DNA from: an uncultured Chloroflexia bacterium
GTDB taxonomy: Bacteria > Chloroflexota > Limnocylindria > Limnocylindrales > CSP1-4
Assembly: GCA_963833535.1 (NCBI GenBank)
Contig: CAWHYC010000006.1
Span: 41,574 to 105,573 of the forward strand
Reading direction: 5' to 3'
DNA: 64,000 nucleotides
Shown here one piece after another: positions 6,301-44,984 of the stretch (positions within the stretch are counted from its first letter, which is position 1; every line of letters starts with the position of its first letter). A program made the translations under genes and the position numbers. The notes below the pieces were generated by a model. It did not search any database. It had not been told where the DNA came from and was given only the letters and a program-made list of their open reading frames with translations.

Positions 6301-6606
6301 GATGTCCGTGCCGTACTCGAACTCGGCGATGACGACGGCCAGGCTGGGCGACGAGGTCGAGCGCACCGATTTGACCCCCTGGACGCTCGACAACGTGCGC
6401 TCGATGGGCGCCGAGACCTGCTCGGCGACATCGGTCGTGCCAGCGCCCGGGTAGACGGCGATGACCGTCGCGACCGGGAAGTCGATGTCCGGCAGCAGCT
6501 CGGCTTGCAGCTGACCCCAGGCGAGGATGCCGCCAACGAAGACGCCGGCCGCCAGGAGCAGGGTCACGGATTTGCGGGCCAGCGCGAGCTGGGTCAGTCG
6601 GTACAC
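3364..6606 (-). CDS. RND-family efflux transporter permease (AcrB/HAE-like)
   Basis: 1080 aa with twelve TM helices, two large periplasmic loops and AcrB-like motifs. GTG start. Confidence 0.9.
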   Translation of the reverse strand: MYRLTQLALARKSVTLLLAAGVFVGGILAWGQLQAELLPDIDFPVATVIAVYPGAGTTDVAEQVSAPIERTLSSVQGVKSVRSTSSPSLAVVIAEFEYGTDIEAAIADIESNLSSAGLPPSVEPKVSTLNINAFPITSLTVQSDDASVDIGKLVRDEVVPELAGLPGVASVSVTGGDLQRVNVVLDPVKLARHNVSVQQVAGILQANEISIPSGTIVEGDSTLPVTTSHRFTTIEQLADLLITYDVPAALPGAGTGQLPVDPAAPPAPDSVVTPPAAPTPITLGDLGSVEYGPDPAAGVSRTDGKPSVGISVIKTSDANTVDVSKAVEAAMSQLDEDLGLNTTYVYRSADFVEQSIEGLVREGGLGALMAVLVIFLFLLSVRSTVVAAISIPLSVMAALVLMLVGGVSLNIMTLGGLAVAVGRVVDDAIVVLENIFRHHRANREPIGIAVIAGTKEVSSAITSSTITTVAVFLPIGLVGGLVTQFFLPFSLTVTFALLASLICALTVVPVLAYFLVPRVKHVPGAGEVGNKDTWLQRIYTPILQLALRFRWITLAAAALLFAAAIALIPQIPTAFLSAGSDEVLTVTITPPPGTTSSATLDRAVQAEAIIAQDPDVETYQTSLAGSNDSGTTAQQSFLGTASGSATILVNLKTGTDLNVQTEQLLADLAPVATDGYVVRAGAISSGGNGLQIIVSSEDETALAAATSQLTTAVAKIDGIVNVKSDLASKAPELQVDVDPDKALAVGSTTVQIAQEIRNLLLGQTPIRPALEGQSGATPVFVRIDPASIEGPDSIRDLLVGTVQKQKVADVATVTEVDSQATITRVDQSPAATISGDILSKDTGGASKAVQAAIDDLALPSTVTVELAGISQQQTEGFSDLAYAMLISIAVVYIVMVIVFGSLLDPFIILFSLPLALIGAILALLISGLPLGISSMIGILMLIGIVVTNAIVLLDLVEQLRRKGYSVEHALYHAGRTRVRPIVMTALATILALTPLALGINKGSIIAAELGTVVIGGLFTSTLLTLVVVPVVYSLTHGGTARVGRLLNRGRADDDGEEGLPGLDTTPVSAVAAPAPETPIS

Positions 6607-6646
6607 AGGGACTCCTTGGTGGGCTTCCGGTCGCTTGCGTCGCTCG

Positions 6647-7201
6647 TCATCTGGTCAGGGTCAGGGATGGGGGCTGATCGATGGGGCTCGGTCGATCGGC
6701 AGCGGCAGACGCGCGGGCGCTGTGGCGCTCGACCATCGTGCGCACGAGGCGCTCGAGCTGCTGGAGCTCGGCCGGCGTGAAGACGCTGAAGAGGTCGCGC
6801 AGGACGTCACGCTGCATGCCCAGCATGCCGGCCACGAGAGCGCTGCCGGCCTCGGTCAGGCGCAGATCCACGACGCGACGGTCGTCGCTCCGGTGGTGCC
6901 GCTCAGCGAGGCCCTGGCGCTCGATGCGGTCCGCGAACTGCGAGGCCGCCGTCATCGTGACCCCGAACCGTTCGGCGATATGGCCGATCGACTGGGGGCC
7001 CTGCTGCGACAGGAGGTACACGAGCCGAAGCTGACCGAAGGTCAGGTCGAGGCCCATCCAGGCTGGCGGGTCGACCAGCGGCCGGGTGGCCTCACCGGTC
7101 TGGAGCAAGTCGGCGATGCGGTCGACGGCGGCTCCGTGACCCTCGGTCGGGACGGTCGCGCCGGCGGTCGCGCGCGCTGATCCGCGCTTCGGTGTGGTCA
7201 T
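6647..7201 (-). CDS. MarR family transcriptional regulator
   Basis: Winged-helix MarR core (LTFGQLRLVYLLS...DRRVVDLRLTEAG). It sits directly upstream of, and co-oriented with, the RND pump. Confidence 0.8.
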   Translation of the reverse strand: MTTPKRGSARATAGATVPTEGHGAAVDRIADLLQTGEATRPLVDPPAWMGLDLTFGQLRLVYLLSQQGPQSIGHIAERFGVTMTAASQFADRIERQGLAERHHRSDDRRVVDLRLTEAGSALVAGMLGMQRDVLRDLFSVFTPAELQQLERLVRTMVERHSARASAAADRPSPIDQPPSLTLTR

Positions 7202-8801: not shown

Positions 8802-9638
8802 CTAGGTCAGCGCCAACAGCGCGACTCCGACCACGACCAGGATGCTGCCGGCGAACCTGCGTGGGCCGACCTTTTCATGGAGGAACGCGGCGGCCATGGC
8901 CGTCGCGATGACCACGCTCGACTCCCGAGCCGCCGCCACCGACGCCGGTGGGGCGATGGTCAGCGCCGCCAGCGCGGCGCCATAGCCGACGAACATGGCC
9001 AGGCCGACGAAGGCGGTCAGCGGCCGGAGCTGTGACCGGACCAGCGAGCGACCCCGGCGCCGCGCGACCAGCACGAGGTAGACGAGACCCGGGGGCCCCA
9101 GGGCAAGGACGACGTACGCCGTCGGCGACGCGTACTGCAACCCCTGGCGGTCGACGAGCGTGTATGACGCGATGGTGGCCGCGACCGCCAGCGCCAGCAG
9201 CGTGCCCGGCCAGTCGGCCGAGCCCGATGACCCGCGACCGAGACCGCGCACCAACATCACCCCGGCCCCGACGGCCAGCACACCGACGATCTCGCCCGGA
9301 GAGTTCGAGAGCTGGAGCACGATGGTCCCGAAGATGAGCACGATGACCGGCGCCAGGCCACGGGCGAGCGGGTAGATGAGTGACAGGTCCGCCCGCCCGT
9401 AGGCAGCCGCAAGCAGGGCGAGGTAGACCAGCTCGAGGACCATCGACGTGATCAGGAACGGCCACGCCTCCGGCTCGATGCGCCAGGTCGGCAGCGCGAA
9501 CGGCAGGAAGATGAGGGCGCCGATGGGCACGGCCACGGCGGTCGTGACGTCGGTGTCACGGCTGCGCGCGATGAGCAGGTTCCAGGTCGCGTGGAGGGTA
9601 GCCGAGAGGAGGACGAGCGCCAGGGCGAGCGGCGGCAC
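8802..9638 (-). CDS. EamA/DMT-family transporter
   Basis: Ten TM segments with a duplicated EamA-like pattern. Confidence 0.75.
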   Translation of the reverse strand: MPPLALALVLLSATLHATWNLLIARSRDTDVTTAVAVPIGALIFLPFALPTWRIEPEAWPFLITSMVLELVYLALLAAAYGRADLSLIYPLARGLAPVIVLIFGTIVLQLSNSPGEIVGVLAVGAGVMLVRGLGRGSSGSADWPGTLLALAVAATIASYTLVDRQGLQYASPTAYVVLALGPPGLVYLVLVARRRGRSLVRSQLRPLTAFVGLAMFVGYGAALAALTIAPPASVAAARESSVVIATAMAAAFLHEKVGPRRFAGSILVVVGVALLALT

Positions 9639-9644
9639 GGCCGC

Positions 9645-10646
9645 TCAGCCGCCGGTCGGACGGTCGTACACCTCGGGGTTGACGGGCGTCGGCAGCCGCT
9701 CGCCACGTACACCTGCCAGCAGGTTCTCGGCCGCCATAGCCGCCATCCGACCGCGGGTCGCCCGCGATGCGGAGGCGATATGGGGCACGACCAGGCAGTT
9801 CGGCAATGACAGCAGCGGGTCGTCCGGGGCCATCGGCTCGGGATCGGTGACGTCGAGGGCGGCCGCCGCGATGCTGCCATCACGCAGCGCCGCCGCCAGC
9901 GCGACCTGGTCGACGACCGGACCACGAGAGGTGTTGACCAGGACGGCCGTGGGTTTCATCGCCGCCAGCGCCTCGGGCCCCATGAGGTGGCGGGTATCGG
10001 GCGTCAGGTTGACATGGAGGGTCACGAAGTCGGCCTCGGCGAGGAGCACATCCATCGTCACTGCCTCGACGCCGAGCGACCGCTGGTCCTCCTCGGGTGG
10101 CGGGAAGGCATCGTGGACGAGCACGCGCATCTCGAAGCCCCGCGCTCGTTTGGCCATCTCGCGGCCGATGCGGCCGAAGCCGACGATGCCCAACGTGGCG
10201 TGATGGATGTCCGGGCCGAGCAGCAACAGCGGTCCCCAGGTCAGCCACCGGCCTGCTCGAACGTAGTCGTAACCCTCGGGCAGCCGCCGGGCCGCGGCCA
10301 TCAGCAGCGCCCAGGCGAGGTCGGCCGTCGTCTCGGTCAGGACGCCTGGCGTATTGCCGACCGGGATGCCGCGGCGGGTGCAGGCGGGCACGTCGATGTT
10401 GTCGAAGCCGACCGCGAAGTTGCTGACCACCCGGAGGCCGGGGCCAGCGGCATCGAGCAGCTCGTCGTCGACGCGATCGGTGAGCAGAGAGAGCAGCCCA
10501 TCCACGCCGCGAACGCGCTCCAGCAGCGTGGCGCGCGGCGGCGGGAGCTCGTCGGGCCAGAGGTCGACCTCGACGGCGGCGAGCGGCGCCAGACCCTCGT
10601 CCGGCAGGCGCCGGGTGACGAAGACCCTGGGCCGAGCCGCGCTCAC
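9645..10646 (-). CDS. D-2-hydroxyacid dehydrogenase (glyoxylate/hydroxypyruvate reductase-like)
   Basis: NAD-binding motif GIVGFGRIGREMA, plus the catalytic R/E/H arrangement typical of the D-isomer-specific 2-hydroxyacid dehydrogenase family. Confidence 0.85.
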   Translation of the reverse strand: MSAARPRVFVTRRLPDEGLAPLAAVEVDLWPDELPPPRATLLERVRGVDGLLSLLTDRVDDELLDAAGPGLRVVSNFAVGFDNIDVPACTRRGIPVGNTPGVLTETTADLAWALLMAAARRLPEGYDYVRAGRWLTWGPLLLLGPDIHHATLGIVGFGRIGREMAKRARGFEMRVLVHDAFPPPEEDQRSLGVEAVTMDVLLAEADFVTLHVNLTPDTRHLMGPEALAAMKPTAVLVNTSRGPVVDQVALAAALRDGSIAAAALDVTDPEPMAPDDPLLSLPNCLVVPHIASASRATRGRMAAMAAENLLAGVRGERLPTPVNPEVYDRPTGG

Positions 10647-12312: not shown

Positions 12313-13497
12313 GTGCGCGCGCTGTGCATCGATGTCGGCACGGGCACCCAGGACATCCTCCTCTTCGACGCCGCCAGGGAGGTCGAGAACGCCTTCCGGA
12401 TGGTCCTTCCATCGCCGACGGTCCTGATCGCCGACCGCGTCCGCAGAGCGACGGTGGCCGGCCAGTCGGTCGTGCTGCGTGGTTCGATGATGGGCGGGGG
12501 GCCGTCGGCCTGGGCCATCCGCGACCATGCGCTGGCTGGCCTGCCGGTCGCGGCCACGGCCGCTGCTGCCCGGACGCTGGACGACGATCTCGATGGCGTG
12601 CGCAGCCTCGGCGTCCGGATCGTCGACGACGGTGAGGCCGCCGAGCTGGCCGCGTGGCCCGGCACCCTGGCCCTCCACTTGCGCGACATCGCCCTCGACG
12701 ACCTGGCCGCCGCGCTCGCTCGTTACGACATCGACCTTCGGACCATCGATGCGCTGGCGGTGGCGGTCTTCGATCATGGCGCCGCGCCGCCGGGTATCTC
12801 CGATCGACGCTTTCGTTTCGAGCGGCTCGCCGAGCGGCTGCGCGAGGAGCCCGAAGCCGGGCCGGCCGCCTTCGCCTACGCCGAGGGCACGATCCCGGCG
12901 CCGTTCACGCGGCTCCAGGCCGTCACGACCGACGCCCGTGCCTGGCTTGGCGAACAAGCCGAGACGGTGATCGTGGCCATGGATACGGGGCCTGCCGCCG
13001 TGCTCGGCGGCCTCGAGGATCCGGCGCCACGAGCCGCCCTGCGGGGTGGTCGGGAGGTCGTGGCCGTCAACGTCGGGAACTTCCACACCCTCGCTGTCCG
13101 CCTGGCGCCGGCGCCCGCTTCGGCCAGCGGCTGCCGGATCGCGTCGATCTACGAGCACCACACCGGCGAGATCGACGACGTCGGTCTCCAGCGTGACGTG
13201 GCAAGGGTCGCCGACGGCACCATCGACGGCGAGGCGGTCTTCGCCTCCATGGGCCACGGCGCGTTGATCGTCGCTCAGCCCGCGCGCTCGAGGCTCGGGC
13301 CGCTGGTCTCGGTCACGGGGCCACGGCGAGCGCGTCTGGTCGGCCGGAAGATCCGCCGGGCAGGCGTCGCTCTGGCGGCGGTGCCGCACGGCGACATGAT
13401 GCAGGCCGGTCCGTTCGGGCTCCTGCGCGCCCTGGCCACACGGCATGAGGTATGGCGCGAGCCGATCGAGCAGCGGCTCGGTACCATCGGCGGATGA
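12313..13497 (+). CDS. DUF1786-like ASKHA-fold protein (hypothetical)
   Basis: N-terminal LCIDVGTGTQDILLFD phosphate-1-like motif. GTG start. Confidence 0.45.
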   Translation: MRALCIDVGTGTQDILLFDAAREVENAFRMVLPSPTVLIADRVRRATVAGQSVVLRGSMMGGGPSAWAIRDHALAGLPVAATAAAARTLDDDLDGVRSLGVRIVDDGEAAELAAWPGTLALHLRDIALDDLAAALARYDIDLRTIDALAVAVFDHGAAPPGISDRRFRFERLAERLREEPEAGPAAFAYAEGTIPAPFTRLQAVTTDARAWLGEQAETVIVAMDTGPAAVLGGLEDPAPRAALRGGREVVAVNVGNFHTLAVRLAPAPASASGCRIASIYEHHTGEIDDVGLQRDVARVADGTIDGEAVFASMGHGALIVAQPARSRLGPLVSVTGPRRARLVGRKIRRAGVALAAVPHGDMMQAGPFGLLRALATRHEVWREPIEQRLGTIGG

Positions 13498-13868
13498 AGC
13501 AGCCGGCGGCGGTCGAGCGCATCTCGGTGGTCGAGGCCGCCCGTCGCTTGGACGCGGCCGGGTCGGACGCAGGGCCGATGCTCGTCGACGTCCGTGAGCC
13601 GGCCGAATACGCCCAGTTCCGAGCCACGGGAGCGGTGCTCATGCCGCTCAGCGTCTTCCAGCTCCGCTTCAGCCAGCTGCCGCGCGACCGGCCCCTGCAG
13701 CTCATCTGCGCGGCAGGACAACGCAGCCTGGCGGCCGGCGAGTTCCTGATCTCCCAGGGCTACGAGACGGTCGCCAACGTCGAGGGCGGCTCGATCGCCT
13801 GGATGCGCGCCGGCTTGCCCGTTCGGACCGGGCCGCCCGACGACGGCGAGGGCGATCTCCCGGGTTGA
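13494..13868 (+). CDS. rhodanese-domain sulfurtransferase
   Basis: Single rhodanese domain with the active-site CAAGQRS loop. Confidence 0.75.
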   Translation: MKQPAAVERISVVEAARRLDAAGSDAGPMLVDVREPAEYAQFRATGAVLMPLSVFQLRFSQLPRDRPLQLICAAGQRSLAAGEFLISQGYETVANVEGGSIAWMRAGLPVRTGPPDDGEGDLPG

Positions 13869-13947: not shown

Positions 13948-15480
13948 TTATGAGACCTTGCGCGTCGCGTCAAGGTCGAGCTCGTCCTCCGGCGGAGGCA
14001 GCTTGGTCCGGCCGCGCGTGATCGCGTGCAGCCAGCGCGCGCGCGTCCGGGGCCGCTGGACGAGCACGCCGACCGTGAGCAGGACGATGAAGTTGACGGC
14101 CGCGATCGTGGACGCGTTGATCTCGCCGAGCTGGATGCCGATCTGGCCGGGGATGGCCAGCCCCGGGATCGTGGCGCCGATCAGGCCCAGCTGGAAGAAC
14201 GGCCGCTTTGGCGCCAGGTTGGCACGAAGCGTGTCGACCTGGGGTCCGCTCTCGTCGGCCCCGCCGACGAGGTAAACGTAGGCTCCGACGATGGCCGCTG
14301 AGCCGGCGACACGAGGGCTCGGCAGGTCGTCCTGGCTGAGCGTCTGCCACGCCGCGATGTCGCCGGTCGTGACATTCGGGACCGCCCACAGCGTCGTAGC
14401 CACCGCTGAGCCGGCACCATCCCGCCCGCCGACGACGTAGAGCGCGCCGCTGTTCGTGAAGCCCGCCGCGTCCACGCGCGCGGCTGGCAGCGAGCTGGCA
14501 CCGGTGCTGACCGCCCAGGGCACGACCGGTGAGTCCGCGGTGGCGCCGGTACGCGCCGGTTGACCTGCGGAGTCGAGCTCGAGCCGCAGCACTTCGCCCG
14601 TCGGTCCGAGCGTCGTCTCGCCGCCGATGACGTACATGAAGCTGCCCGACAGGCCGGCCGTGCCATGGGCACGTCCGTTGGGCTGACCGGTCGAGTCCGG
14701 CAGCGTCAGCTCAGGATGCTCGATCCACGCCTGTAGTTCTGGAGGATCGGAATTGGGCACGATCTGCGCGCGCCAGGTAGACGCCGACAGGCCATCCGCC
14801 GTCCGGCCACCCATCAGCCAGACGCCGTTCGCGTCGGCGACCGCCATCGCTCCGCTGACGGGCACCTTCAGCGCCAGCGCGGTGGCCTCCTGCCAGCCGG
14901 TGATGGCACCCTCCTTGAGCGTGGCCACGAAGACGGTCGACGTGGGCTTGCGGTCGGCATCGAGGCCACCGATGACGAACGGGCGGCCATTGACGGAGAC
15001 GAATGCGGCATCAGTGCGCGGCGCAGGCAGGTCGGCACCGGCGGACCATTTCCCGAAGTTGCCATCCTCGGTCGTGGTCGTCTTGAGCACGGAGGCCGTG
15101 ACGCCGGTCGGCGTGGTGCCCCCGACGAGGTACAGATCCAACCCACCCTGGAAGGCTCCGGCATCCGTACGTCCTTCGGGCAGGGCGACCTCCGGCGGCG
15201 ACGACTGCCAGGGCACGACGGCCCCGGCCGGCACCGGGCAGGGCAGGTCGCCGTTGGAGGCGTCGCACAGGTTGACGACGCTGATCACGTTGTAGCCGAT
15301 CTGGACCGTCTGGCGGATGGTCAGGTAGAGCGCGATGTTGGGCACGTAGCCGAGCAGGAAGAGGACGGCCCCGAACCAGAAGAGCGCCTTCCAGAACGCC
15401 GCTGGCCAGCCGTCGGCGTCGAGCAGCCCGAAGGCTGTTCGCCGCCGCGTGGTGCCGCTGGGGAGCGCGCGCTGGGCCAC
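13948..15480 (-). CDS. membrane-anchored Kelch-repeat beta-propeller protein
   Basis: N-terminal TM helix, about six Kelch blades (repeated ...Y/FV(I/V)GG... motifs), and a C-terminal TM segment. It lies directly downstream of the cyt c–cupredoxin gene. Confidence 0.7.
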   Translation of the reverse strand: MAQRALPSGTTRRRTAFGLLDADGWPAAFWKALFWFGAVLFLLGYVPNIALYLTIRQTVQIGYNVISVVNLCDASNGDLPCPVPAGAVVPWQSSPPEVALPEGRTDAGAFQGGLDLYLVGGTTPTGVTASVLKTTTTEDGNFGKWSAGADLPAPRTDAAFVSVNGRPFVIGGLDADRKPTSTVFVATLKEGAITGWQEATALALKVPVSGAMAVADANGVWLMGGRTADGLSASTWRAQIVPNSDPPELQAWIEHPELTLPDSTGQPNGRAHGTAGLSGSFMYVIGGETTLGPTGEVLRLELDSAGQPARTGATADSPVVPWAVSTGASSLPAARVDAAGFTNSGALYVVGGRDGAGSAVATTLWAVPNVTTGDIAAWQTLSQDDLPSPRVAGSAAIVGAYVYLVGGADESGPQVDTLRANLAPKRPFFQLGLIGATIPGLAIPGQIGIQLGEINASTIAAVNFIVLLTVGVLVQRPRTRARWLHAITRGRTKLPPPEDELDLDATRKVS

Positions 15481-15494
15481 GGTCGTGCTCGCCC

Positions 15495-16661
15495 CTACTT
15501 CACGAACTCGAAGTCGCCGTGCATCGAGCCGTAGTGGCCCGGAAGCGTGCAGGCGAACTGGAGGGCATCGGTCGTCTCGAAGGTGTAGGTCACCTCCTTG
15601 GTGCCGCTCGAGAAGGTGGGGATGCCGGGCAGGTCCGGCGCCGGGTTGTTGGCGCTCAGCGCGTCAGCCGGCCCGATGTAGAAGTTGTGGTCGAAGCCGG
15701 CCGTGTTAGTCACGCGGAAGGTGACCGTCTCGCCGGCCACGACAGGGATCGAGGCGACCTTGGTGCCCGCGGGGTCGGTGATCTGGAGCGTGCCGGTCTC
15801 GTTCAGCTCGATGACCCGAGGCTTGTCCTTCGTGCCCGGCGTATCGACCGTCCCGCCGCCCGCGCTGCCTCCGCCCTCGTTCGGGCCGCCGACGAGCGGA
15901 CCGTCCGGGTCGCGCCAGCAGGCCGGGTAGGGCGTAGCGTCAGGTGCCGGCTTGAAGTTCGGGTCCCGCCAGCCGTGGACGTCGACCGGCTGCGGCGTCG
16001 GGCCAGTCTCGCCTTCGGCGGTGTGCGGCTGATAGGTCCACGTCGTCTCGTTGGTGGCACCGAGGAAGGCCACGATCTCCTCGATCTGGCGGTAGTTGAG
16101 CGGGCCGGCGGGCTGGGCCCAGACCGGCATGACGCTCTTCGCATCGCCACAGACCAGCCGGCCACCGTTCTGCAAGACCGCTGTGATGTAGCTCGGGTTG
16201 AGATGACCGGTACCGGGATCGCCGGTCGGCGTGTACGAGTTGTAGAGGGCCATCTGATCGTTGAGCGGCGCCCCGACGCCGCCCTTGCCATCCACGCCGT
16301 GGCAGGCAGAGCAGTTCGTCTGGAAGAGCGCGTAGCCTCGCGAGACGTCGGTGATGTACTGCTCTTGGCCGACCTGCGCCATGTCACCCGAGATGCCCAG
16401 CGCGGGCACGCCGATGGCGTAGAACCAGTAGAGCGGGATGAAGAAGACGAGGATGAAGACGCCCAGGAACGCGACGCGTCGCGCATTGCCGCTCTGGCGG
16501 ACGATCTGAGCGCCTCGCTCCTCGGTCAGCTCGACCCGATGGGTGCGCTCTCCGGCGTCGAAGCGCTCGACGCCCAGCGGACTGTCCTCACGTGGCGCGA
16601 CCTCGCTGCCAGGCTCGCGCGGCGTCAGCTCGCGCCCGGTCAGGTCATCACTCATATGCAA
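15495..16661 (-). CDS. cytochrome c – cupredoxin (type-1 copper) fusion protein, membrane anchored
   Basis: TM anchor, the heme-binding motif CSACHG, and a C-terminal azurin-like copper site (H...C-x4-H-x3-M, FACTLPGHYGSMHG). Confidence 0.75.
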   Translation of the reverse strand: MHMSDDLTGRELTPREPGSEVAPREDSPLGVERFDAGERTHRVELTEERGAQIVRQSGNARRVAFLGVFILVFFIPLYWFYAIGVPALGISGDMAQVGQEQYITDVSRGYALFQTNCSACHGVDGKGGVGAPLNDQMALYNSYTPTGDPGTGHLNPSYITAVLQNGGRLVCGDAKSVMPVWAQPAGPLNYRQIEEIVAFLGATNETTWTYQPHTAEGETGPTPQPVDVHGWRDPNFKPAPDATPYPACWRDPDGPLVGGPNEGGGSAGGGTVDTPGTKDKPRVIELNETGTLQITDPAGTKVASIPVVAGETVTFRVTNTAGFDHNFYIGPADALSANNPAPDLPGIPTFSSGTKEVTYTFETTDALQFACTLPGHYGSMHGDFEFVK

Positions 16662-17323
16662 CCCGTCGGGCTCGTCGGCGGGATGAGGCCCGGCTGTCCG
16701 AGCGCGATGGGCAGGGGCCCCAGCGTGATGGCTGCGGTGTTGACGGTCAGCACGCCATCGGCATTGACGGCCGATGCGAAGCGATCGAGGCTGCGGGGGG
16801 CGGGACCGAGCTTGTCGATCTTGGTTCCCAGGCGGTCATAGCGCGAGCCATGGCAGGCGCACTCGAACCAGTGGTTCTTGGTGCAGAAGTTCGGCTTGCA
16901 GCCGAGGTGAGGGCAGCGCTGATAGAGGGCCCGGACGTTGATGTCGATGCCCGAGCCGTCGCTGCTTTCGCCGGGCAGGAAGCCGCGCGATGTGTCGATG
17001 AGCTGGACGTAGGCCTTGGCGATCTGGAAGTAGGCCGGGGCGCCGTCTTCGAGCTTCGTGCCGGCCACGGCAGGCGCTGCGTTGACGTCGGTGATCGTGC
17101 CCAGCGTCACCAGGCTGCCGAACCCGCCGTGCAGGTTCGGCCACATGAAGCCGATCGTGCCGGCCAGCGTCTCGCCCAGCCAGAGCGCCACGCCGGCGCC
17201 CAGCGAGCGGCGCAGCAGCGTCCGTCGTGACAGGCCGGCGGCACGGCCATGGCGGAGTGAGGCCAGGGACTCGCGCGTCAGCGTCTGGGGCTCATCTGCC
17301 GCGCCCAGCTTCCAGTTGCCCAT
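16652..17323 (-). CDS. qcrA: Rieske [2Fe-2S] iron-sulfur subunit of a cytochrome bc/b6f-type complex
   Basis: Tat-like signal (RRTLLRRSLGAGVALW) and the Rieske boxes CPHLGC and CACHGS. Confidence 0.85.
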   Translation of the reverse strand: MGNWKLGAADEPQTLTRESLASLRHGRAAGLSRRTLLRRSLGAGVALWLGETLAGTIGFMWPNLHGGFGSLVTLGTITDVNAAPAVAGTKLEDGAPAYFQIAKAYVQLIDTSRGFLPGESSDGSGIDINVRALYQRCPHLGCKPNFCTKNHWFECACHGSRYDRLGTKIDKLGPAPRSLDRFASAVNADGVLTVNTAAITLGPLPIALGQPGLIPPTSPTGCI

Positions 17324-17336
17324 CAGTCCGCCATCC

Positions 17337-17981
17337 TCACAGCGCGAAGAAGAGACCGTCGACCCACGGCAGGGACCAGGCGTAGCCCGGGCCGCGGAAG
17401 AAGGCCCCGATGAAGGTCACGACCAGCCCGGAGATGCAGAAGATGGTGAAGATCATGACGCCCGTCTTGCGGTCGCTGGGTCGTGGCGACCCCCCGTCGC
17501 CGCGCGGGCCGCGGTCGATGTAAGGCACCAGCCCGGCGCCGACCAGGATGAAGGCCACGCCGAGCACGCCGACCACCGTCGGATGGAAATAGACGAGCAG
17601 CTCCTGGAGACCGACCAGGTACCAGGGCGCCTTGGTCACCACCGGTGTCACCGCGCTGTTGGCCAGCTCCTCGAGCGGAGCGTTGATGAAGACTCCCATG
17701 ACGATGAGGAAGACGCTGATCACGGCCGCCGCGAAGAACTCGATGGCCAACAGGTGCGGCCACGTCAGGACCGTGTCGTCGGGTTCCTTCTGGACGCGCA
17801 CGACGGCGTCCTGCTTGACCAGCGCCAGCAGGCGGTAGGGCCGGGCTGCCATCGGCACGCGCTGCTTGTCGATCTCCGTGGTGCGCCGCTCGGGTGGTGC
17901 GGCGGGCACGCTGGTCCGGCGCGCCGGGACCTCGGGCGCAGGGGGTGGGGTCGGCGTTGGCAGGCGGGTCTCGTCGGTCAT
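17337..17981 (-). CDS. cytochrome b6f-type subunit IV (C-terminal half of split cytochrome b)
   Basis: Three TM helices and the PEWY-equivalent motif APWYLVGLQELL. It sits downstream of cyt b6. Confidence 0.75.
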   Translation of the reverse strand: MTDETRLPTPTPPPAPEVPARRTSVPAAPPERRTTEIDKQRVPMAARPYRLLALVKQDAVVRVQKEPDDTVLTWPHLLAIEFFAAAVISVFLIVMGVFINAPLEELANSAVTPVVTKAPWYLVGLQELLVYFHPTVVGVLGVAFILVGAGLVPYIDRGPRGDGGSPRPSDRKTGVMIFTIFCISGLVVTFIGAFFRGPGYAWSLPWVDGLFFAL

Positions 17982-18002
17982 CGGGCGTTCGCGTCCATCC
18001 GC

Positions 18003-18731
18003 CTACAGCGGCCCGGAGATGCCGCCGTCCTTCCGGATCCGCCAGAAGTGGACGGCCAGAAAGAACGCCGCGGTCAAGGGCAGGAAGACGACGTGCAGGA
18101 CGTAGAAGCGCAGCAGGGTGTTCTGGCCGACCTCGAGGCCACCGAAGATGAGCAGCTTGGAGACGGTGTTGAAGACCGGCGCGCTCTCCGCGAAGTTGAA
18201 GCCGATGGTGATGGCCCAGTAGGCGATCTGGTCCCAGGGCAACAGATAGCCGGTGTAGGACAGGAAGATGGTCAGGAAGAGGAGCACGACCCCGACTACC
18301 CAGTTGAACTCACGCGGCGGCTTGTAGGCCCCGTGATAGAAGACCCGCATCATGTGCAGGAAGACGAAGAAGACCATCAGGTGGGCGGCCCAGCGGTGGA
18401 CGTTGCGGGTCAACAGCCCGAAGAGGACCTCCGACTGGATGCGCAGGATGTCGTTGTAGGCCTGCGTCGCCGACGGCACGTAGAAGAACATCAGGTAGAC
18501 GCCGGTGATGGTCAGCACGAGGAAGAGGAAGAAGGACAGCCCGCCGAGGCAGAAGGTGTAGGCGAACTTGACCGCGTGCTGGCGGACACGCACCGGGTGG
18601 AGATGGAGGAAGACGTTGTTCATGACCGCCATCGCCCGCGACCGCTCGTCCGCGGGATAGGGCTGACGGAAGATCGAACGCCAAGCTGCGCTGCGGCGGA
18701 TCGACTGGTCGACCCGCTCCAGGAAGCTCAC
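18003..18731 (-). CDS. cytochrome b6 (N-terminal half of split cytochrome b)
   Basis: Four conserved His heme ligands (HRWAAH...FLH and LHVVF...AVHFW), the C-terminal RKDGGISGPL, and an N-terminal FCLGG cysteine equivalent to the heme ci/cn-binding Cys of b6. Confidence 0.85.
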   Translation of the reverse strand: MSFLERVDQSIRRSAAWRSIFRQPYPADERSRAMAVMNNVFLHLHPVRVRQHAVKFAYTFCLGGLSFFLFLVLTITGVYLMFFYVPSATQAYNDILRIQSEVLFGLLTRNVHRWAAHLMVFFVFLHMMRVFYHGAYKPPREFNWVVGVVLLFLTIFLSYTGYLLPWDQIAYWAITIGFNFAESAPVFNTVSKLLIFGGLEVGQNTLLRFYVLHVVFLPLTAAFFLAVHFWRIRKDGGISGPL

Positions 18732-20647
18732 CGGATGACTCCTCCCGTGACCGGTGCGTTGCCCAGCCCGGCCAGGCCGAGCTGCGCATCCCGATAGCTC
18801 TCCTTGTAGAGGCGTCCGTCGCTGCTCACCTCCTGCAGCTCGAACCGTTCCATGGTAATGGCGTCATAGGGGCACCGTTTGACGCACAGGGCACAGCGGA
18901 TGCAGCGCTCCTCGTCGAGGACCATGGCGGCGCCCTGATCCCAGCCGTAGGCGTCGACGAGCTCCGGCAGCGCGCCCTCGGCCTTCATCTGGCTGACGTC
19001 GATCATGTGGATGACGCCCTCGGGGCAGACGTCCGCGCAGGCTCCGCAGAGCACGCACCGGAAGGGGTCGAACCAGATGTTGTAGTTGCACATCAGGCAG
19101 CGGGTCGACTCGGCGACCGCCTCGGTCACGCCATAGCCCTGCTCGACCTGGGTGTTGAAGTTGACGACCGGGTCGGTCGAGGGGATGCGGGCGTCGAGCG
19201 GCGTCATGGGCACGTGCTGGCGCGGCAGCACGTCGTACAGCTCGGGCATCTCGTGGCGCCAGGAGCTGACGATGCGCACGTTCGCGTCGACGCGTACGGT
19301 GCTCCGGCCGGCCAGGTAGCGATCGATGGCATAGGCACACTTCTTGCCGTGACCGGCCGCCTCGATGAGCGTCGTCGGGCCGGTCACGAAGTCGCCGCAG
19401 GCGAAGACGCCCTTGACGTTCGAGGCGTAGGTGCCGGGGTCGACCTTGACCCGACCGCGGTTGATCTCGAAGCTCGACTCGACGGGCAGGAATGTGTTGT
19501 CGGCGGCCTGGCTGACGGCCGGGATGACGGTCTGAGCGGCGATCACGAACTCGGAGCCGGCGATGGGCACCGGCGAGCGGCGGCCGGTCGCGTCGGGCTC
19601 GCCGAGCCGGTTGCGGATGAAGCGCACGCCGGTCACCTTGCCGTCCTCGCCGAGCACCTCGATGGGGCTGGCCAGGAACTCCATGCGCACGCCCTCGCGC
19701 TCGGTCTCACCGAGCTCCTCCTCGTCGACGACGAGCTCGGAGCGCGTTCGCCGGTAGGCGATGGTCACGTTGGCGGCACCGTGGCGCAGGCTCGTGCGCG
19801 AGCAGTCCATGGCCGTGTAGCCGCCACCGATGACGACCACGTCGCTGCCGACCTCGAGCGCCTGACCGAGGTTCGCTTTCTTCATGAAGTCGACGCCGTA
19901 CTGGATGCCCTCGAGATCCGAGCCCGGGACGTCCAACCCGACGGGGTCCATGGCGCCGGCGCAGATGGCTATAGCATCGAATTCGGCCTGGAGCTGCTCG
20001 AACGTGATGTCGCGCCCGATGCGGGTATCGAATCGGAAGCGCACACCCAGCCGCTCGACCAGTCGGACGTCCATCTCGATCGCCTCGCGCGGCAGTCGGA
20101 AGGCGGGCACGCCGATGAGCATCGTGCCGCCCGCGAAGGGGAGCTCGTCAAAGACCGTGACCTGGTGGCCGGCCGTGGCCAGCTCGCGGGCGACGGCGAT
20201 GCCAGCCGGTCCGGCGCCGACGACGGCGACCTTCGTGTCCTGCGGCGTGATGACCGGCACCTCGTCCGGGATGCCCGACGCCTCGTGCCACTCGACGAGG
20301 AAGCGCTTCATGGCTCGGATGGCCAATGGCCGGTCGATGTCGCCGCGGCGGCAAGCACGCTCACAGGGCGCGGAGCAGACGTAGGCGCACATGGCGGCCA
20401 CCGGGTTGGGCTCGCGCGATAGCACGTAGCCCTCCTCGAAGCGGCCTTCGGCGGCCAGGTTCAGGTAGCCACGACAGTTAGTGCCGACCGGGCAGGCTTC
20501 CTGGCATTCGATGTTGCACTGAAGCCAGGACGCATTGACGGGCTGGACGAGGAAGTCCTGGTCGATAGCCACGGGCAGGTGCGACGCCTTTCCGATGCGC
20601 TGGGGGGCGGGGGTCGGGGGGCTGGCGGACAGGCCGGAATCTACCAT
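18728..20647 (-). CDS. GltD-like NAD(P)H-dependent FAD/Fe-S oxidoreductase with a C-terminal 2×[4Fe-4S] ferredoxin domain
   Basis: N-terminal Cys cluster and the dinucleotide fold VAVVGAGPAGIAVA, both typical of glutamate synthase beta / SudA. The C-terminal region carries two CxxCxxCxxxCP motifs. The stop overlaps the cyt b6 start. The ORF extends to 20758, but the internal ATG was chosen as the start. Confidence 0.8.
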   Translation of the reverse strand: MVDSGLSASPPTPAPQRIGKASHLPVAIDQDFLVQPVNASWLQCNIECQEACPVGTNCRGYLNLAAEGRFEEGYVLSREPNPVAAMCAYVCSAPCERACRRGDIDRPLAIRAMKRFLVEWHEASGIPDEVPVITPQDTKVAVVGAGPAGIAVARELATAGHQVTVFDELPFAGGTMLIGVPAFRLPREAIEMDVRLVERLGVRFRFDTRIGRDITFEQLQAEFDAIAICAGAMDPVGLDVPGSDLEGIQYGVDFMKKANLGQALEVGSDVVVIGGGYTAMDCSRTSLRHGAANVTIAYRRTRSELVVDEEELGETEREGVRMEFLASPIEVLGEDGKVTGVRFIRNRLGEPDATGRRSPVPIAGSEFVIAAQTVIPAVSQAADNTFLPVESSFEINRGRVKVDPGTYASNVKGVFACGDFVTGPTTLIEAAGHGKKCAYAIDRYLAGRSTVRVDANVRIVSSWRHEMPELYDVLPRQHVPMTPLDARIPSTDPVVNFNTQVEQGYGVTEAVAESTRCLMCNYNIWFDPFRCVLCGACADVCPEGVIHMIDVSQMKAEGALPELVDAYGWDQGAAMVLDEERCIRCALCVKRCPYDAITMERFELQEVSSDGRLYKESYRDAQLGLAGLGNAPVTGGVIR

Positions 20648-21010
20648 CCCGACCGAGCCACACGCTGACCCAAGCACCCATCGTCCGCGGAACCATGGCC
20701 CATCGCGAGGATAGTCCCCGCAGGACTGTGTGGGACCAGCAGTCCCGGTCCGCGACACGATCCGGTCCGTCCGAGGAAGGATCCACGGGCACTCGGCCCC
20801 GTACCACGGGGGTTCCCACGCGGTGACGGCTGATTTCGCGACGCTCGGGCATGAAACCGGCGCTTTGCAGTCCTACGGGGACTAGGACATCAAGTCCACG
20901 GCCGCCTCCGGTTCGCGGCGGCCGATGGTCAGGTTGACGCCCCGAGTGGTCGCAGCTACGCTCATGGCCACGATGCGAGCTGCCCAGCCCGGGTCGATCC
21001 GGATCGACCG

Positions 21011-22543
21011 GTGAATGCCGACGAGATCCTCTTCCTGGCCATCGGCCTCTGCCTCGGCATCGCCGTCGGCGCGGCGCTCCTGGACCTGGTCCGGGCGCGG
21101 CCTGCCCCGCGCGAGGTCCGCCTGACGATCACCCGCAATGCCCTGCCGGAGCGGGAGGCGGCCATCGACCTCGAGCATGCCCCGCTCGTCGAACGCATGC
21201 CGATCAGGGTGGCGCGCGGCGTCGACCCGGCGTACGCTGCCATCCGGCAGGCCGACGAGCCGGCCATGGTCGGCGCCGTGGCCGTCAGCGCGGCAGCCGC
21301 GAGGCGATCCGGTGACGCCGGAACGATGTCGGAAGGACGGACCGCGGTGGCGATGGCCGACGATGAGGGCACGATCGAGACGGGCGCGGGAGCGTCTGGC
21401 ATCGTTGGCACGCAGGAGCCGAGCCTCGGGGCCGCTCTCGATCCCGACGACCCATGTGCCGCCCAGCGACGCCTGGCCGACGAGCGTTGCGCGGTCGCCG
21501 CGCGTGCCAATGAGCAGGCCGAGGCCGCCGCCACCAACCTGAGGAACGCCAGGCGCGCCTACGACGACGTCGCACGGCGCATCGACGAGGCGCACCAGCG
21601 AACAGACCCGCGTGCCGTGGATGGCGCCAAGGAGGCCGCCCGGCACGCCTTCCGGGGCGCTCGAGAGCGGGCGTCATCCCGCGCCGACCTGGAGCTGGCG
21701 GCGACCGTCTGGCTGACCGAGATCAATCGCATCAACCTCTCGACCCGGGACGCGTCGCTGCTCATCACTCGCGAGCAGTCCGACGCCGCGCTGCTGCTGA
21801 GCTCCATCGAGCGTCAGGCGCTTGAGGCCGATGCTGCGCGCATCACCGCCGAGGCCGCCGAGGAGGCCTGCGCCGAGGCCCAGGTCGCGCTGTCGGCCTG
21901 CGCTGCTGGCGACCGGCAGGCGGCGGCTCGGCCGTCGACGGCGCCCACCACGGTGCCCCTGACCGCCGCCATCTGGGACCGGGAAGGCGGACACCAGCCG
22001 GAGATCGTCCGGCTGTTGCGCGGCGAGACCGCCGCTCGCGAGCGCCTCGTTGCCCAGCTGGCCGGCTCCGACCCCGAGGAGCAGCGGCACTACCAGCTCT
22101 GGCTCAGCGAGCTGATCGATGCCATCTTCGCCGCCAGCATCGAGACCGCCATCCTGGACTTCCCGGACGAACACCCGTTCTGGTCGGCGTTCGACCGCGC
22201 CCAGAGCCGGGACATCACGGTCGCCCTGGCCTCGCTCGGCTATCGCTTCGACGGTCTCGGCGGCTTCGCCTCGGATCGCGTGCCCGGCCAACGCGAGCTG
22301 GCCCTGGCCGTCGGCTACGCCGCCCTCGACCCGATGCGCATCCGTCAGTGGCCGACGGTGACGGAGATGCCCGAGCTCTTCGGTCAGGTGACCGTCGCCG
22401 CCGACGAGTTCCTGGCGACGCGTGCGCCGGACCTGGACCTGGGCGAGATGGTGGCCGTCCTGGGGCGTCGCTCGGAGCAGCTCTCGGAGCTCTGGAACCG
22501 CTGGGCGCAGGTCCGCCCGCTGCTCCTGCTGGTCAAGGAGTAG
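21011..22543 (+). CDS. hypothetical membrane-anchored protein with an Ala-rich coiled-coil region
   Basis: One N-terminal TM helix, a long low-complexity and coiled-coil segment, and a C-terminal globular region. There are no recognisable motifs. Confidence 0.45.
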   Translation: MNADEILFLAIGLCLGIAVGAALLDLVRARPAPREVRLTITRNALPEREAAIDLEHAPLVERMPIRVARGVDPAYAAIRQADEPAMVGAVAVSAAAARRSGDAGTMSEGRTAVAMADDEGTIETGAGASGIVGTQEPSLGAALDPDDPCAAQRRLADERCAVAARANEQAEAAATNLRNARRAYDDVARRIDEAHQRTDPRAVDGAKEAARHAFRGARERASSRADLELAATVWLTEINRINLSTRDASLLITREQSDAALLLSSIERQALEADAARITAEAAEEACAEAQVALSACAAGDRQAAARPSTAPTTVPLTAAIWDREGGHQPEIVRLLRGETAARERLVAQLAGSDPEEQRHYQLWLSELIDAIFAASIETAILDFPDEHPFWSAFDRAQSRDITVALASLGYRFDGLGGFASDRVPGQRELALAVGYAALDPMRIRQWPTVTEMPELFGQVTVAADEFLATRAPDLDLGEMVAVLGRRSEQLSELWNRWAQVRPLLLLVKE

Positions 22544-30672: not shown

Positions 30673-31601
30673 GCGATCGACCTCGACGCATACAGGCTCG
30701 CCCGATGAGCGCCCCGAAGACGCCATCGCCGGGGCGCCCGAGGCGCGGGCTGATCGCCCTTGGCGTGATCGTCGCGGCGGTGCTCCTCACCGTGGTCGGG
30801 CTGAGCGGCCTGCGAGGCGGAGGGTCGGCGTCGACCGCGACCCCATCGGCCGCCGTAGGGGGATCGGACGCTGGCACCCTTGGCACGCCGGCGGCCTCGA
30901 CCGCGTTCCCGACCGCGTCGCCTGGCGCGACGCGGTCGCCCGTGACGAGCGCCTCGCCATCGACAAACCTCTCCGCGACCACGAGCCCATCGGCGCCGCC
31001 GGCGACCGGCGCGTCCACCCCGGCGGCTCCGACCTCGGCCGCCGGCTTCGCCCTTCGCAAGACGGTCATCGACATCGCATTCCCCTTCCGGGCGACGGTC
31101 GGCTACCGGTACTCGGACCGCTTCCTGGCCCCCAGGGTCGGGGTCACACGGCGCTTCAACCACGCCCGCGGTGTCTCGGGAAGCGGCCGCCTCCTGCGCG
31201 CGCACGATGGAGTCGACCTGCGCGCCAAGCGGGGGACTCACGTCTACGCGGCCTTCTCGGGCACGGTCATCGACCCGGCCACGCGCTGGAAGCCATGGGA
31301 CGTCCCGCGATACGGCAAGTACGTGGCCATCGTCTCCGACGAGCCGACCAGTCCGGGCTACGCCGTCATCTACGCCCACCTGGCATCGGTGGCCGTCGCG
31401 ATCGGCGACCATGTCGAGCGCGGTCAATGGATCGGCCGGGTCGGCAATACCGGCAATGCCGCAAGCGAGCCACCCCAACTGCACGTCGAGCTGCGGGCGC
31501 CGTTCCGCATCCCGGTCCGGGAGGGTGGCCGGAACCGGCGCATCGATGCCTTCGACCCATTGCCCAGCCTCCTGGCGGCCGATCCGAAGCGTAAGCACTG
31601 A
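30669..31601 (+). CDS. M23-family metallopeptidase (peptidoglycan endopeptidase)
   Basis: TM anchor, a Pro/Ala/Ser linker, and the M23 motifs HDGVDL...YAHL...PHLHVE-like (QLHVEL). Confidence 0.8.
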   Translation: MSDRPRRIQARPMSAPKTPSPGRPRRGLIALGVIVAAVLLTVVGLSGLRGGGSASTATPSAAVGGSDAGTLGTPAASTAFPTASPGATRSPVTSASPSTNLSATTSPSAPPATGASTPAAPTSAAGFALRKTVIDIAFPFRATVGYRYSDRFLAPRVGVTRRFNHARGVSGSGRLLRAHDGVDLRAKRGTHVYAAFSGTVIDPATRWKPWDVPRYGKYVAIVSDEPTSPGYAVIYAHLASVAVAIGDHVERGQWIGRVGNTGNAASEPPQLHVELRAPFRIPVREGGRNRRIDAFDPLPSLLAADPKRKH

Positions 31602-31635
31602 GCGGGTCCCCCTCGCGGGGCGGGACCATCCGGTC

Positions 31636-43383: not shown

Positions 43384-43697
43384 CAGTCGCCCTCGGTCGG
43401 CTTGGCGGGGGCGACCGGCTTCTTGCGGAACATCTGGAGCATCCGGTCCGTGACCACGTAGCCACCGACCACGTTCATCGAGCCGAAGAGGACGGCGATG
43501 AAGGCCAGCGCATACGAGACCGGGTTGTCGGCCGTGGCGGCGATGAGCATGCCGCCCACTAGGACGATGCCGTGGATCGAGTTGGCGCCCGACATCAGCG
43601 GCGTGTGCAGCGTGGCCGGGACCTTGCTGATGACCTCGAAGCCGACCAGGATGGCCAGCACGAAGATGGCCAGTGCGTTGAGCAGCTCGGGGCTCAT
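43383..43697 (-). CDS. pntAB: NAD(P) transhydrogenase subunit alpha part 2 (membrane)
   Basis: About 100 aa with three TM helices. ATGA overlap with pntB. Confidence 0.8.
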   Translation of the reverse strand: MSPELLNALAIFVLAILVGFEVISKVPATLHTPLMSGANSIHGIVLVGGMLIAATADNPVSYALAFIAVLFGSMNVVGGYVVTDRMLQMFRKKPVAPAKPTEGD

Positions 43698-44854: not shown

Positions 44855-44984
44855 GCGGGGAACCCTTGTCGTACGTGGTCGATATCGCCGGTAAGGATAG
44901 CGGGTCAGGGTGCTCGTAACGGGCTGCCAGCGTGTCTCCTGGACCGCCATCAGAGCGCACTCTTATAGTGTTATGATACTAGCC

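Follow-up and report, generated by a model that had tools for sequence, protein, structure and literature searches.

Whether a Rieske/cytochrome b complex can send the low-potential electron of its quinol to NAD(P)+ instead of recycling it to quinone is an open question, and it has so far been raised for anammox bacteria alone, organisms that are difficult to cultivate. A much simpler system with the same core, which has a single haem c and a single blue copper site and lacks multihaem cytochromes, is encoded in the genome of an uncultured Chloroflexia soil bacterium of the Limnocylindrales (GenBank assembly GCA_963833535.1, contig CAWHYC010000006.1, positions 41,574 to 105,573 of the forward strand; this whole stretch of 64,000 nucleotides (nt) is referred to as the window). 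Six genes on the minus strand (13948-20758) very probably constitute a single operon that encodes a Rieske/cytochrome b6 quinol oxidoreductase from the class known as cytochrome b "subfamily G" or "APWY". As predicted from the sequence, the core would comprise cytochrome b6 with haems bL, bH and cn, subunit IV and the Rieske protein, contacted on the n side by an NfnB-like arm with FAD and a wire of four iron–sulfur (Fe–S) clusters. On the P side, where the anammox and Acidobacteriota versions have multihaem cytochromes, a monohaem c/blue-copper protein takes their place, and a membrane Kelch protein is added. By analogy, the complex might split the quinol electrons between the Cu/haem branch and NADP+. 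This mechanism is put forward tentatively; identity and mechanism taken together are the best overall explanation, which we hold with moderate confidence.

All six co-oriented, tightly spaced or overlapping minus-strand genes described in an earlier reading of the DNA letters (the original prediction) were found, and their domains were assigned by Pfam and NCBIfam. Two of the earlier coordinates, the starts of the flavoprotein (20758) and of the cytochrome c (16661), were corrected. In the order of transcription, the features are as follows, with TM for transmembrane:

20573..21010, no strand: upstream intergenic region between the operon and the divergent gene, presumed promoter region
18728..20572, minus strand: NfnB/GltD-like FAD/NADP(H) flavoprotein with four Fe–S sites (Pfam Fer4_20, Pyr_redox_2, Fer4 twice)
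18003..18731, minus strand: cytochrome b6, a four-helix cytochrome b (Pfam Cytochrome_B, 2.7e-44)
17337..17981, minus strand: subunit IV with three TM helices and APWY (Pfam Cytochrom_B_C, 7.8e-5)
16652..17323, minus strand: Rieske [2Fe-2S] protein with a twin-arginine signal/anchor (Pfam Rieske, 4.5e-8; weak NCBIfam PetC-type matches)
15495..16655, minus strand: membrane-anchored monohaem cytochrome c fused to a type-1 copper domain (Pfam Cytochrome_CBB3, Cytochrom_C)
13948..15480, minus strand: six-blade Kelch beta-propeller with two TM helices (Pfam Kelch families)

The subunit assignments of the original prediction were borne out. Pfam agrees with a GltD-like flavo-Fe–S oxidoreductase with a C-terminal 2x[4Fe-4S] domain, the alignment to b6 confirms the split cytochrome b with four His and the haem-ci/cn Cys in FCLGG, and the Qo motif APWY is present in subunit IV. 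The Rieske motifs CPHLGC/CACHGS behind a twin-arginine translocation (Tat) signal, the cytochrome c–cupredoxin fusion and the TM-anchored Kelch propeller were likewise recovered, as detailed below.

The open reading frames (ORFs) have a G+C content at third codon positions (GC3) of 0.84-0.91, which is of the coding type, in a window with about 70% G+C. The junctions between the genes are, from the first to the last, a GTGA overlap, 21 nt, 13 nt, an ATGA overlap and 14 nt. At the first of them, the GTG start of cytochrome b6 overlaps the stop of the flavoprotein gene, which indicates translational coupling. Terminator-like sites were absent between the cluster genes; the only ones found lay within coding sequence and did not exceed the number in shuffled sequences. 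No sigma-70-like sites were detected in the cluster and the upstream intergenic region, which is weak evidence because the scan covered the sigma-70 consensus only, and no Rfam families were found in either. With no promoter or terminator found inside the cluster, separate transcription of the flavoprotein gene, named in the original prediction as a finding that would speak against it, is not indicated. The operon is bordered upstream by a divergent ORF of 510 amino acids (aa) with its start at 21011 and downstream by a convergent rhodanese gene. An identical cytochrome b6 sequence was found on metagenome contigs, where the gene order is unchanged.

The open frame of the flavoprotein up to 20758 is over-extended, since the orthologues begin with M/V-AIDxxQEFLVQP, which corresponds to GTG 20572 and a protein of 614 aa. 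The sequence GGAAAGG is located 14 nt upstream of this codon, and GTG 20572 is, as judged from these features, most likely the start, with ATG 20647 as the alternative. Sources label the protein "formate dehydrogenase beta subunit" or "glutamate synthase beta-like". The best NCBIfam match, PRK12771, stayed under its cut-off of 516 with a score of 426; the GltD models TIGR01317 (219, cut-off 447.7) and TIGR01318 (267.7, cut-off 482.95) were missed by a wide margin. No glutamate synthase large-subunit domain or gltB was found among the flanking genes. The protein is thus not an ordinary glutamate synthase small subunit (GltD), the case that had been raised as a possible refutation: its scores in the hidden Markov model (HMM) searches lie below every GltD cut-off, gltB is missing nearby and the synteny with cytochrome b6 is conserved (see below). 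Its membership in the operon is further borne out by the overlap of its stop with the cytochrome b6 start.

The PDB sequences most similar to the flavoprotein were NfnABC (9bov_A, 6e-107), NfnA (9n5u), StnC (8oh5_C) and NfnB (4ylf_B/5jca_L), and a Foldseek search with its AlphaFold2 (AF2) model returned the same proteins. After these NADPH-binding modules of NfnABC, StnABC and NfnAB, the next relatives by sequence and fold were GltD and dihydropyrimidine dehydrogenase. The family has 15 invariant Cys, eight of which belong to the dicluster domain at the C-terminus. The N-terminal domain and the motif RCLMC account for the other seven, which serve two further clusters, so that one cluster has three Cys only. 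The motifs GAGPAG, GGGYTAMD and YRRTR are present, the last of which follows the second Rossmann strand and is, we take it, the motif of NADPH-specific GltD and NfnB, so that the flavoprotein is probably specific for NADPH. Neither a TM helix nor a regulatory domain (Pfam) was predicted, and the protein is probably soluble and located on the cytoplasmic side. In common with it, NfnAB, NfnABC and StnABC have domains for FAD and NADPH, a pair of [4Fe-4S] sites near the N-terminus, of which one lacks part of its Cys set, and additional clusters of the ferredoxin type. They pair, however, with NfnA-type or Bfu B/C partners, which are absent here, and the partners in the window are membrane haem proteins; any bifurcation would therefore be quinone-based at the Qo site and not flavin-based. 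An NfnAB transhydrogenase was rejected because the NfnB-like fold is present but the NfnA partner is not: no NfnA-like gene (2Fe-2S plus FAD) was found in the operon or its flanks.

The sources of close flavoprotein homologues (83-97% identity) assign these to Candidatus Limnocylindrales (Chloroflexota). Among representatives at 50% identity, the identity to the window protein falls from 88% over 50% to about 41%, and many of these relatives are full-length (570-650 aa) with the same architecture. A profile built from them recovered an "NAD(P) oxidoreductase" (NCBI name) of the anammox bacterium Candidatus Scalindua rubra, which is 41% identical over 571 aa (E 1e-157). By sequence, it is thus genuinely homologous to the anammox subunits of the Kuste4570/Kustd1483 type.

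Cytochrome b6 aligns end to end with spinach b6 (6rqf_I, E 5.8e-50) and with cyanobacterial b6 (1vf5_A). FCLGG is found at residues 60-64 with Cys61 as the haem-cn Cys, the residue to which this haem is covalently attached in b6f, and the ligands of haems bL/bH are His112, His126, His213 and His228. Subunit IV has three TM helices (TM scan), APWY at 118-121 and AIEFF at 79-83. The Glu of the latter motif sits where plant subunit IV has a Phe facing haem cn, the plant sequence used for this comparison being approximate. The N-terminal extension of subunit IV (about 70 aa, cytoplasmic side) is conserved across groups, as is the family-specific motif W(R/K)S(I/V)FR in the n-side N-terminus of b6. 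Both could, on the basis of this conservation, form the candidate docking surface of the flavoprotein. Against the NCBIfam family ExtP, the b6 protein scored 292.9 (cut-off 290), and automatic annotation would call it ExtP; subunit IV scored 51.8 against ExtQ (cut-off 150). No Ext family occurred among the NCBIfam matches listed for the other four operon proteins (for the flavoprotein the best 25 of 149), and the flanks were scanned with Pfam only. The naming after the ext genes of Geobacter (selenite/tellurite reduction) was rejected, given that ExtP lies only 2.9 bits over its cut-off, ExtQ is far under it and no ext context was found.

To place the operon among its relatives, GTDB was scanned with one genome per species and a query alignment of 11 sequences headed by their consensus, which limits the dominance of a single clade. 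At least 585 stretches encode a relative of the flavoprotein, and the best 80 loci were analysed with 7-10 kb of flanking DNA each. Synteny was determined by tblastn with the six window proteins, and cytochrome b6 was counted when located within 5 kb on the same strand. The 80 loci span at least seven phylum-level lineages. They belong to Limnocylindria and other Chloroflexota, to Brocadia and another Planctomycetota genome, to numerous Acidobacteriota (Terriglobia, Bryobacteraceae, Sulfotelmatobacter, Geothrix) and, further, to Binatota, Eisenbacteria, Ignavibacteriales, a "Cytophagia" bin and Syntrophaceae. The adjacency of GltD-like genes to petB/qcrB, for which the original prediction had proposed a search, proved to be conserved: cytochrome b6 lies beside the flavoprotein gene in 75 of the 80 loci and all three core genes are present in 70, in four gene orders. 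APWY was found in every readable partner subunit IV (74/74), which links the flavoprotein with a special Qo site. Four distant flavoprotein members that were looked up were all encoded within Rieske/cytochrome b6/subunit IV clusters. Together, the synteny with cytochrome b6 and the constancy of APWY argue that the flavoprotein is a conserved component of one Rieske/cytochrome b class and not a passenger.

The degree of conservation points in the same direction. Within the Limnocylindrales, the flavoprotein (79-88% identity to the window protein) is conserved as strongly as cytochrome b6 (81-88%) and above the Rieske protein (49-70%), the cytochrome c domain (39-61%) and Kelch (36-50%); subunit IV reaches 59-78%. 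The divergences of flavoprotein and b6 are correlated (Pearson r = 0.98) with no sign of partner swapping, a result that shared phylogeny alone would also give. Four types of clusters were distinguished:

Limnocylindrales type (that of the window): flavoprotein–b6–IV–Rieske–cytochrome c/cupredoxin–Kelch; haem-cn Cys present (FCLGG)
Second Limnocylindria type: order as in the window, no Kelch; flavoprotein 46-53% and b6 61-72% identical to the window proteins; haem-cn Cys present
Acidobacteriota type: flavoprotein–Rieske–b6–IV plus a multihaem cytochrome of about 700 aa; haem-cn Cys absent
Anammox type: flavoprotein gene flanked by b6 and a longer subunit IV; large multihaem cytochromes; haem-cn Cys present

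The second Limnocylindria type was found in ten loci (L052, L053, L056, L059, L060, L073, L078, L082, L085 and L087). In clusters of the Acidobacteriota, Binatota and Eisenbacteria type (L006, L041, L045, L054, L066, L068 and L040, with b6 at approximately 9450-10200), flavoprotein and APWY are kept and the CxGG Cys is missing (YYLGS and similar). Several taxon labels seem to be at odds with the type of cluster and the flanks: L005 is labeled "Dormibacteraeota" despite its Limnocylindrales synteny, and L085 ("Steroidobacteraceae") and L048 ("Limnocylindrales") each carry the cluster type of the other group. Of the five loci without cytochrome b6, two end with their contig, two encode outgroup paralogues (33-36% identity), of which L079 adjoins 2-oxoacid:ferredoxin oxidoreductase genes, and one is a Limnocylindrales orthologue (L032). 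In this last locus (L032:937-8499), a flavoprotein of 79% identity is followed by an 870-aa protein with Fer2_4, Fer4_20, Pyr_redox_2 and 2x4Fe-4S domains and by nuoK- and nuoL-like genes. Possible explanations of this gene order are a rearrangement, a chimeric assembly and a second role of the module together with membrane subunits of complex I.

The original prediction had assumed that the architecture was discussed for anammox bacteria only, which is wrong. Dibrova et al. (2013, 2017) described a short cytochrome b "subfamily G" of many phyla that co-occurs with large NAD(P)-binding Fe–S oxidoreductases; the later paper (PMC5600118) places this co-occurrence "in many other cases", dates its first notice to 2011-2013 and reads the cytochrome b as the membrane anchor of a dehydrogenase. 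The "APWY clade" of split cytochromes b defined by Kao and Hunte (2014; PMC4122944) includes delta-proteobacteria, Chloroflexi, Nitrospirales, Planctomycetes, deep Actinobacteria and two Firmicutes genera; none of its members was characterised according to these authors. For two Rieske/cytochrome b complexes of Kuenenia with such a subunit, Kartal and colleagues proposed quinol bifurcation to NAD(P)H. A study from 2025 reports Rieske potentials of +303 and +335 mV, which fit quinol bifurcation to NAD(P)+, and models a path from the n-side haems via four Fe–S clusters to FAD; co-migration of the Kuenenia subunits as a complex is cited there, and their role is still called unclear (PMC12954380). 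No assay or solved structure of such a complex outside anammox bacteria was found in the literature, sequence searches of the PDB with b6 and the flavoprotein found none, and a recent Limnocylindria genomics paper makes no mention of the complex. As for the claim of an uncharacterised variant of complex III, the variant is indeed new, but not the rarity claimed for it, because the core class is known from many phyla. New here is the P-side module of monohaem c and blue copper together with the Kelch subunit on a known core, conserved across Limnocylindrales.

The anammox complexes (Kuste4569-4574 and Kustd1480-1485 of Kuenenia; the Scalindua and Brocadia clusters L004 and L012) share with the window the split cytochrome b with the CxGG Cys, the APWY subunit IV, the Glu facing haem cn, the Ser(/Tyr) signature of the Rieske protein and a FAD/NAD(P) flavoprotein of approximately 570-615 aa with four Fe–S sites, one of which has only three Cys. 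For Kuste4570, the same PDB relatives (NfnABC, FwdF) have been published as were found for the window flavoprotein, the comparison with Kuenenia being based on descriptions. The differences lie mainly in the periphery. On the P side, the anammox clusters encode hexa- or octahaem cytochromes and an HAO-like protein, in contrast to the one monohaem c fused to type-1 Cu in the window. Their subunit IV has five TM helices instead of three, and their flavoprotein gene is located between b6 and subunit IV, whereas it is the first gene here. A small ORF of 46 aa and a CarboxypepD_reg protein are absent in the window, which adds Kelch instead, and the host is a high-GC Chloroflexota and not an anammox planctomycete. 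The multihaem P-side cytochrome and the five-helix subunit IV are features of the anammox subgroup and not of subfamily G as a whole. The remaining members of subfamily G and the APWY clade (Acidobacteriota, Binatota, Eisenbacteria, Ignavibacteriales, Syntrophaceae) share the short cytochrome b, the APWY subunit IV, the Rieske protein and the adjoining oxidoreductase; clusters of the Acidobacteriota type often have an upstream Cu-binding/fn3 protein, but neither Kelch nor the cytochrome c–cupredoxin fusion.

Cytochrome b6f shares the four His and the haem-cn Cys of b6, and the blue-copper acceptor of the window is analogous to plastocyanin. An NADP(H) flavoenzyme on the n side is conceptually similar to FNR, which is loosely bound to b6f and co-purifies with it (cited in PMC5600118), but the window flavoprotein is NfnB-like with an Fe–S wire and unrelated to FNR. 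In addition, b6f has PEWY and a Phe on the side of haem cn in place of APWY and Glu. Pfam detected no cytochrome f domain in the operon, and small ORFs of the PetG/L/M/N type would not fit into the gaps of 13-21 nt. A canonical b6f or a Firmicutes b6c complex was ruled out by APWY, the lack of cytochrome f and a subunit IV that is not fused to cytochrome c.

The Rieske protein contains RRTLLRR at 33-39, CPHLGC at 137-142 and CACHGSRY at 155-162. It thereby carries the same Ser/Tyr pair as Kuste4569 (measured +303 mV), for which this pair is discussed as raising the potential (PMC12954380), and the signature suggests a high potential of the window protein, too. For the cytochrome c, ATG 16655, which forms the ATGA overlap with the Rieske stop, is most likely the start, and TTG 16661 is an alternative. 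The protein, a class I cytochrome c in its haem part, has one TM helix at 65-83 and a single haem motif, CSACH at 117. Over its last 125 residues it matches auracyanin A (2aan, E 3.3e-4; aligned residues 263-383). The haem Met and the Cu ligands His325, Cys371, His376 and Met380 (His...Cys-x4-His-x3-Met) are conserved in 20 orthologues, and in the orthologue of L005 Pfam identified Cupredoxin_1 and Copper-bind. The fusion of monohaem c and type-1 Cu probably forms the P-side electron output of the complex. In the alternative complex III of Chloroflexus, an auracyanin-type cupredoxin is likewise the acceptor of a Chloroflexota quinol oxidase; the cupredoxin of the window differs in being fused to a monohaem c inside a Rieske/cytochrome b operon, and the quinol oxidase is not an alternative complex III. 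Blue-copper acceptors also occur in archaeal Rieske/cytochrome b systems.

The last gene of the operon encodes the Kelch protein with TM helices at 28-46 and 456-474 (TM scan). Its AF2 model (predicted local distance difference test, pLDDT, 89.3) is a six-blade propeller between helices at 25-55 and 445-475, and the top matches in Foldseek were the protein-binding Kelch domains of KLHDC10, LZTR1, KLHL and Keap1. Every named sequence among the 844 homologues is from Limnocylindrales or Chloroflexi, and in the Limnocylindrales type the gene is located directly downstream in all GTDB loci that extend far enough (19/19). The orthologues have an invariant pair Cys72/Cys81 and conserved blade glycines, and no conserved His/Tyr metal site was detected among them. 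A Cu-radical enzyme similar to galactose oxidase was rejected on account of the missing His/Tyr/Cys metal set and the protein-binding Kelch domains at the top of the Foldseek matches. The Kelch protein is a lineage-specific accessory protein.

In the mechanism that we favour, the flavoprotein would dock on the cytoplasmic face of the core and menaquinol would be oxidised at the APWY Qo site. The first electron would pass from the Rieske cluster to haem c, type-1 Cu and a terminal acceptor, and the second would cross the membrane via bL and bH (and cn) and reach FAD through the Fe–S wire. After two turnovers, FAD would reduce NADP+. The exergonic high-potential branch would pay for the uphill step to NADP+, and the quinol protons would be released outside. 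While the sequences show gene content, cofactor motifs, homology and conserved synteny, we infer for this scheme how the subunits touch, which quinone is used, what the redox potentials are and which way the electrons flow. It is argued from the strict pairing of APWY and flavoprotein and from the constant presence of the Rieske protein and a P-side acceptor that Qo chemistry and n-side arm are coupled. Nothing specific speaks for the ferredoxin branch that the original prediction had also considered. A number of points speak against quinol bifurcation. No member of the class outside anammox bacteria has biochemical evidence, and the reaction is undemonstrated in anammox bacteria as well. The genes of a proton-translocating NAD(P) transhydrogenase (PntA and PntB; 41941-44962, minus strand) lie approximately 21 kb from the operon, which gives the organism an NADPH route driven by the proton-motive force already; since the host also looks heterotrophic, its need for a second energised source of NADPH is unclear. 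Electron transfer to the n side opposes the membrane potential, so that by our own rough estimate the energetics are tight. The Glu beside haem cn and an apparently intact n-side pocket would allow ordinary quinone reduction, which is also discussed in PMC12954380. In the Acidobacteriota-type relatives, which keep the flavoprotein, haem cn should be absent along with the CxGG Cys; coupling to the flavoprotein therefore cannot depend on haem cn. Kao and Hunte suggested that APWY complexes run in reverse (PMC4122944). Finally, genes revealing the quinone type and the terminal oxidases of the host were not seen within the 64 kb of the window.

The flavoprotein may instead work in the opposite direction, the chief competing reading, which we regard as possible but rather doubtful. 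It would oxidise NADPH and deliver the electrons through the Fe–S wire to haem cn/bH for the reduction of menaquinone on the n side, with cytochrome b6 as the anchor of a dehydrogenase; the Rieske/Qo half would run an ordinary Q cycle to cytochrome c/Cu, and the whole would be a hard-wired analogue of the FNR–b6f association in cyclic electron flow. Such a dehydrogenase would be exergonic by approximately 250 mV without special energetics, and NADPH is already made in the host by PntAB. Four-helix dihaem cytochromes commonly anchor Fe–S-wired dehydrogenases, as which Dibrova et al. read these clusters, the co-purification of FNR with b6f (both PMC5600118) offers a parallel, and a quinone reduction coupled to protons would be served by a His and the conserved Glu close to haem cn (PMC12954380). 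It leaves unexplained, however, why the unusual APWY occurs at all 74 partner Qo sites and why the Rieske protein and a P-side acceptor are constantly co-encoded. It would also waste the energy span from NADPH to quinone, for which reason the anammox authors judged it unlikely (PMC12954380). The fold does not settle the direction because NfnB-type modules are reversible.

An ordinary Q-cycle complex III, to which the flavoprotein is added as a conditional overflow or redox-balancing valve or as a sensor, appears improbable. Here, electrons would leak from an over-reduced quinone pool or over-reduced b haems to NADP+ (or be supplied by NADPH), which would limit semiquinone and reactive oxygen species. 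A Q cycle could draw on all its elements, namely the four His and the haem-cn Cys together with subunit IV, the Rieske protein and an acceptor of high potential. Aerobic soil lineages carry the complex widely, perhaps as their main complex III; a peroxiredoxin gene near the operon, which is part of the conserved synteny, is weak evidence in the same sense. For a side path, though, a four-cluster flavoprotein of 614 aa that is conserved like b6 and kept across phyla and gene orders seems costly, and it has no regulatory domain. That the GltD-like product works apart from the complex as a soluble NADPH oxidoreductase or glutamate-synthase-type subunit, with only the transcript in common, is very unlikely in view of the synteny data. 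The protein has no TM helix, the outgroup paralogues have other partners, as L079 does, and L032 has an Fe–S flavoprotein and nuoK/L-like genes in place of cytochrome b6. In contrast, cytochrome b6 is the neighbour in 75 of 80 loci despite four gene orders, the anammox gene is inserted between b6 and subunit IV, and the homologous Kuenenia subunit co-migrates with its complex (PMC12954380); the GTGA overlap, the lack of gltB nearby and the GltD scores under the cut-offs add to this.

The module of flavoprotein and APWY cytochrome is inherited together across Chloroflexota, Acidobacteriota, Planctomycetota and further lineages, including very abundant soil groups. If it makes or uses NADPH at the membrane, models of the respiratory chain and metabolic reconstructions of these lineages miss a major redox link. 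The labels given by current pipelines, "glutamate synthase beta-like", "formate dehydrogenase beta" and "ExtP", are all misleading. Abundant bacteria of soil and freshwater, among them Limnocylindria and Acidobacteriota, might even commonly respire by quinone-based bifurcation to NADP+, with the six-subunit complex III of Limnocylindrales splitting menaquinol between haem c/blue copper and an Fe–S/FAD branch that makes NADPH, and with Kelch organising the P-side partner; we offer this as speculation that is rather unlikely to hold in full.

The divergent 510-aa ORF upstream of the operon (21011-22543, plus strand) consists of an N-terminal TM helix, an Ala/Arg-rich middle part and a conserved C-terminal domain of approximately 180 aa; it had no match in Pfam. 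It keeps its position in many Limnocylindrales loci, for example, L005, L017, L022-L025 and L035. It could encode an assembly factor or merely be part of a generally conserved synteny; we know of no attachment system for haem cn outside cyanobacteria. The rhodanese-domain gene at the other border (13452-13868, plus strand) is convergent to the end of the operon and kept in contigs of the same species, while L005 has a DUF309 gene instead; it is probably unrelated to the complex. In the contigs L001-L003 (ERZ250394xx), which contain the identical cytochrome b6, gene calls are split by frameshifts or fused, resembling errors of long-read assembly. A large protein with HTH/MerR, four GAF and GGDEF domains (30946-34569, plus strand) and an AcrB-family transporter (3364-6654, minus strand) are also encoded in the window, and both appear to be unrelated to the operon.

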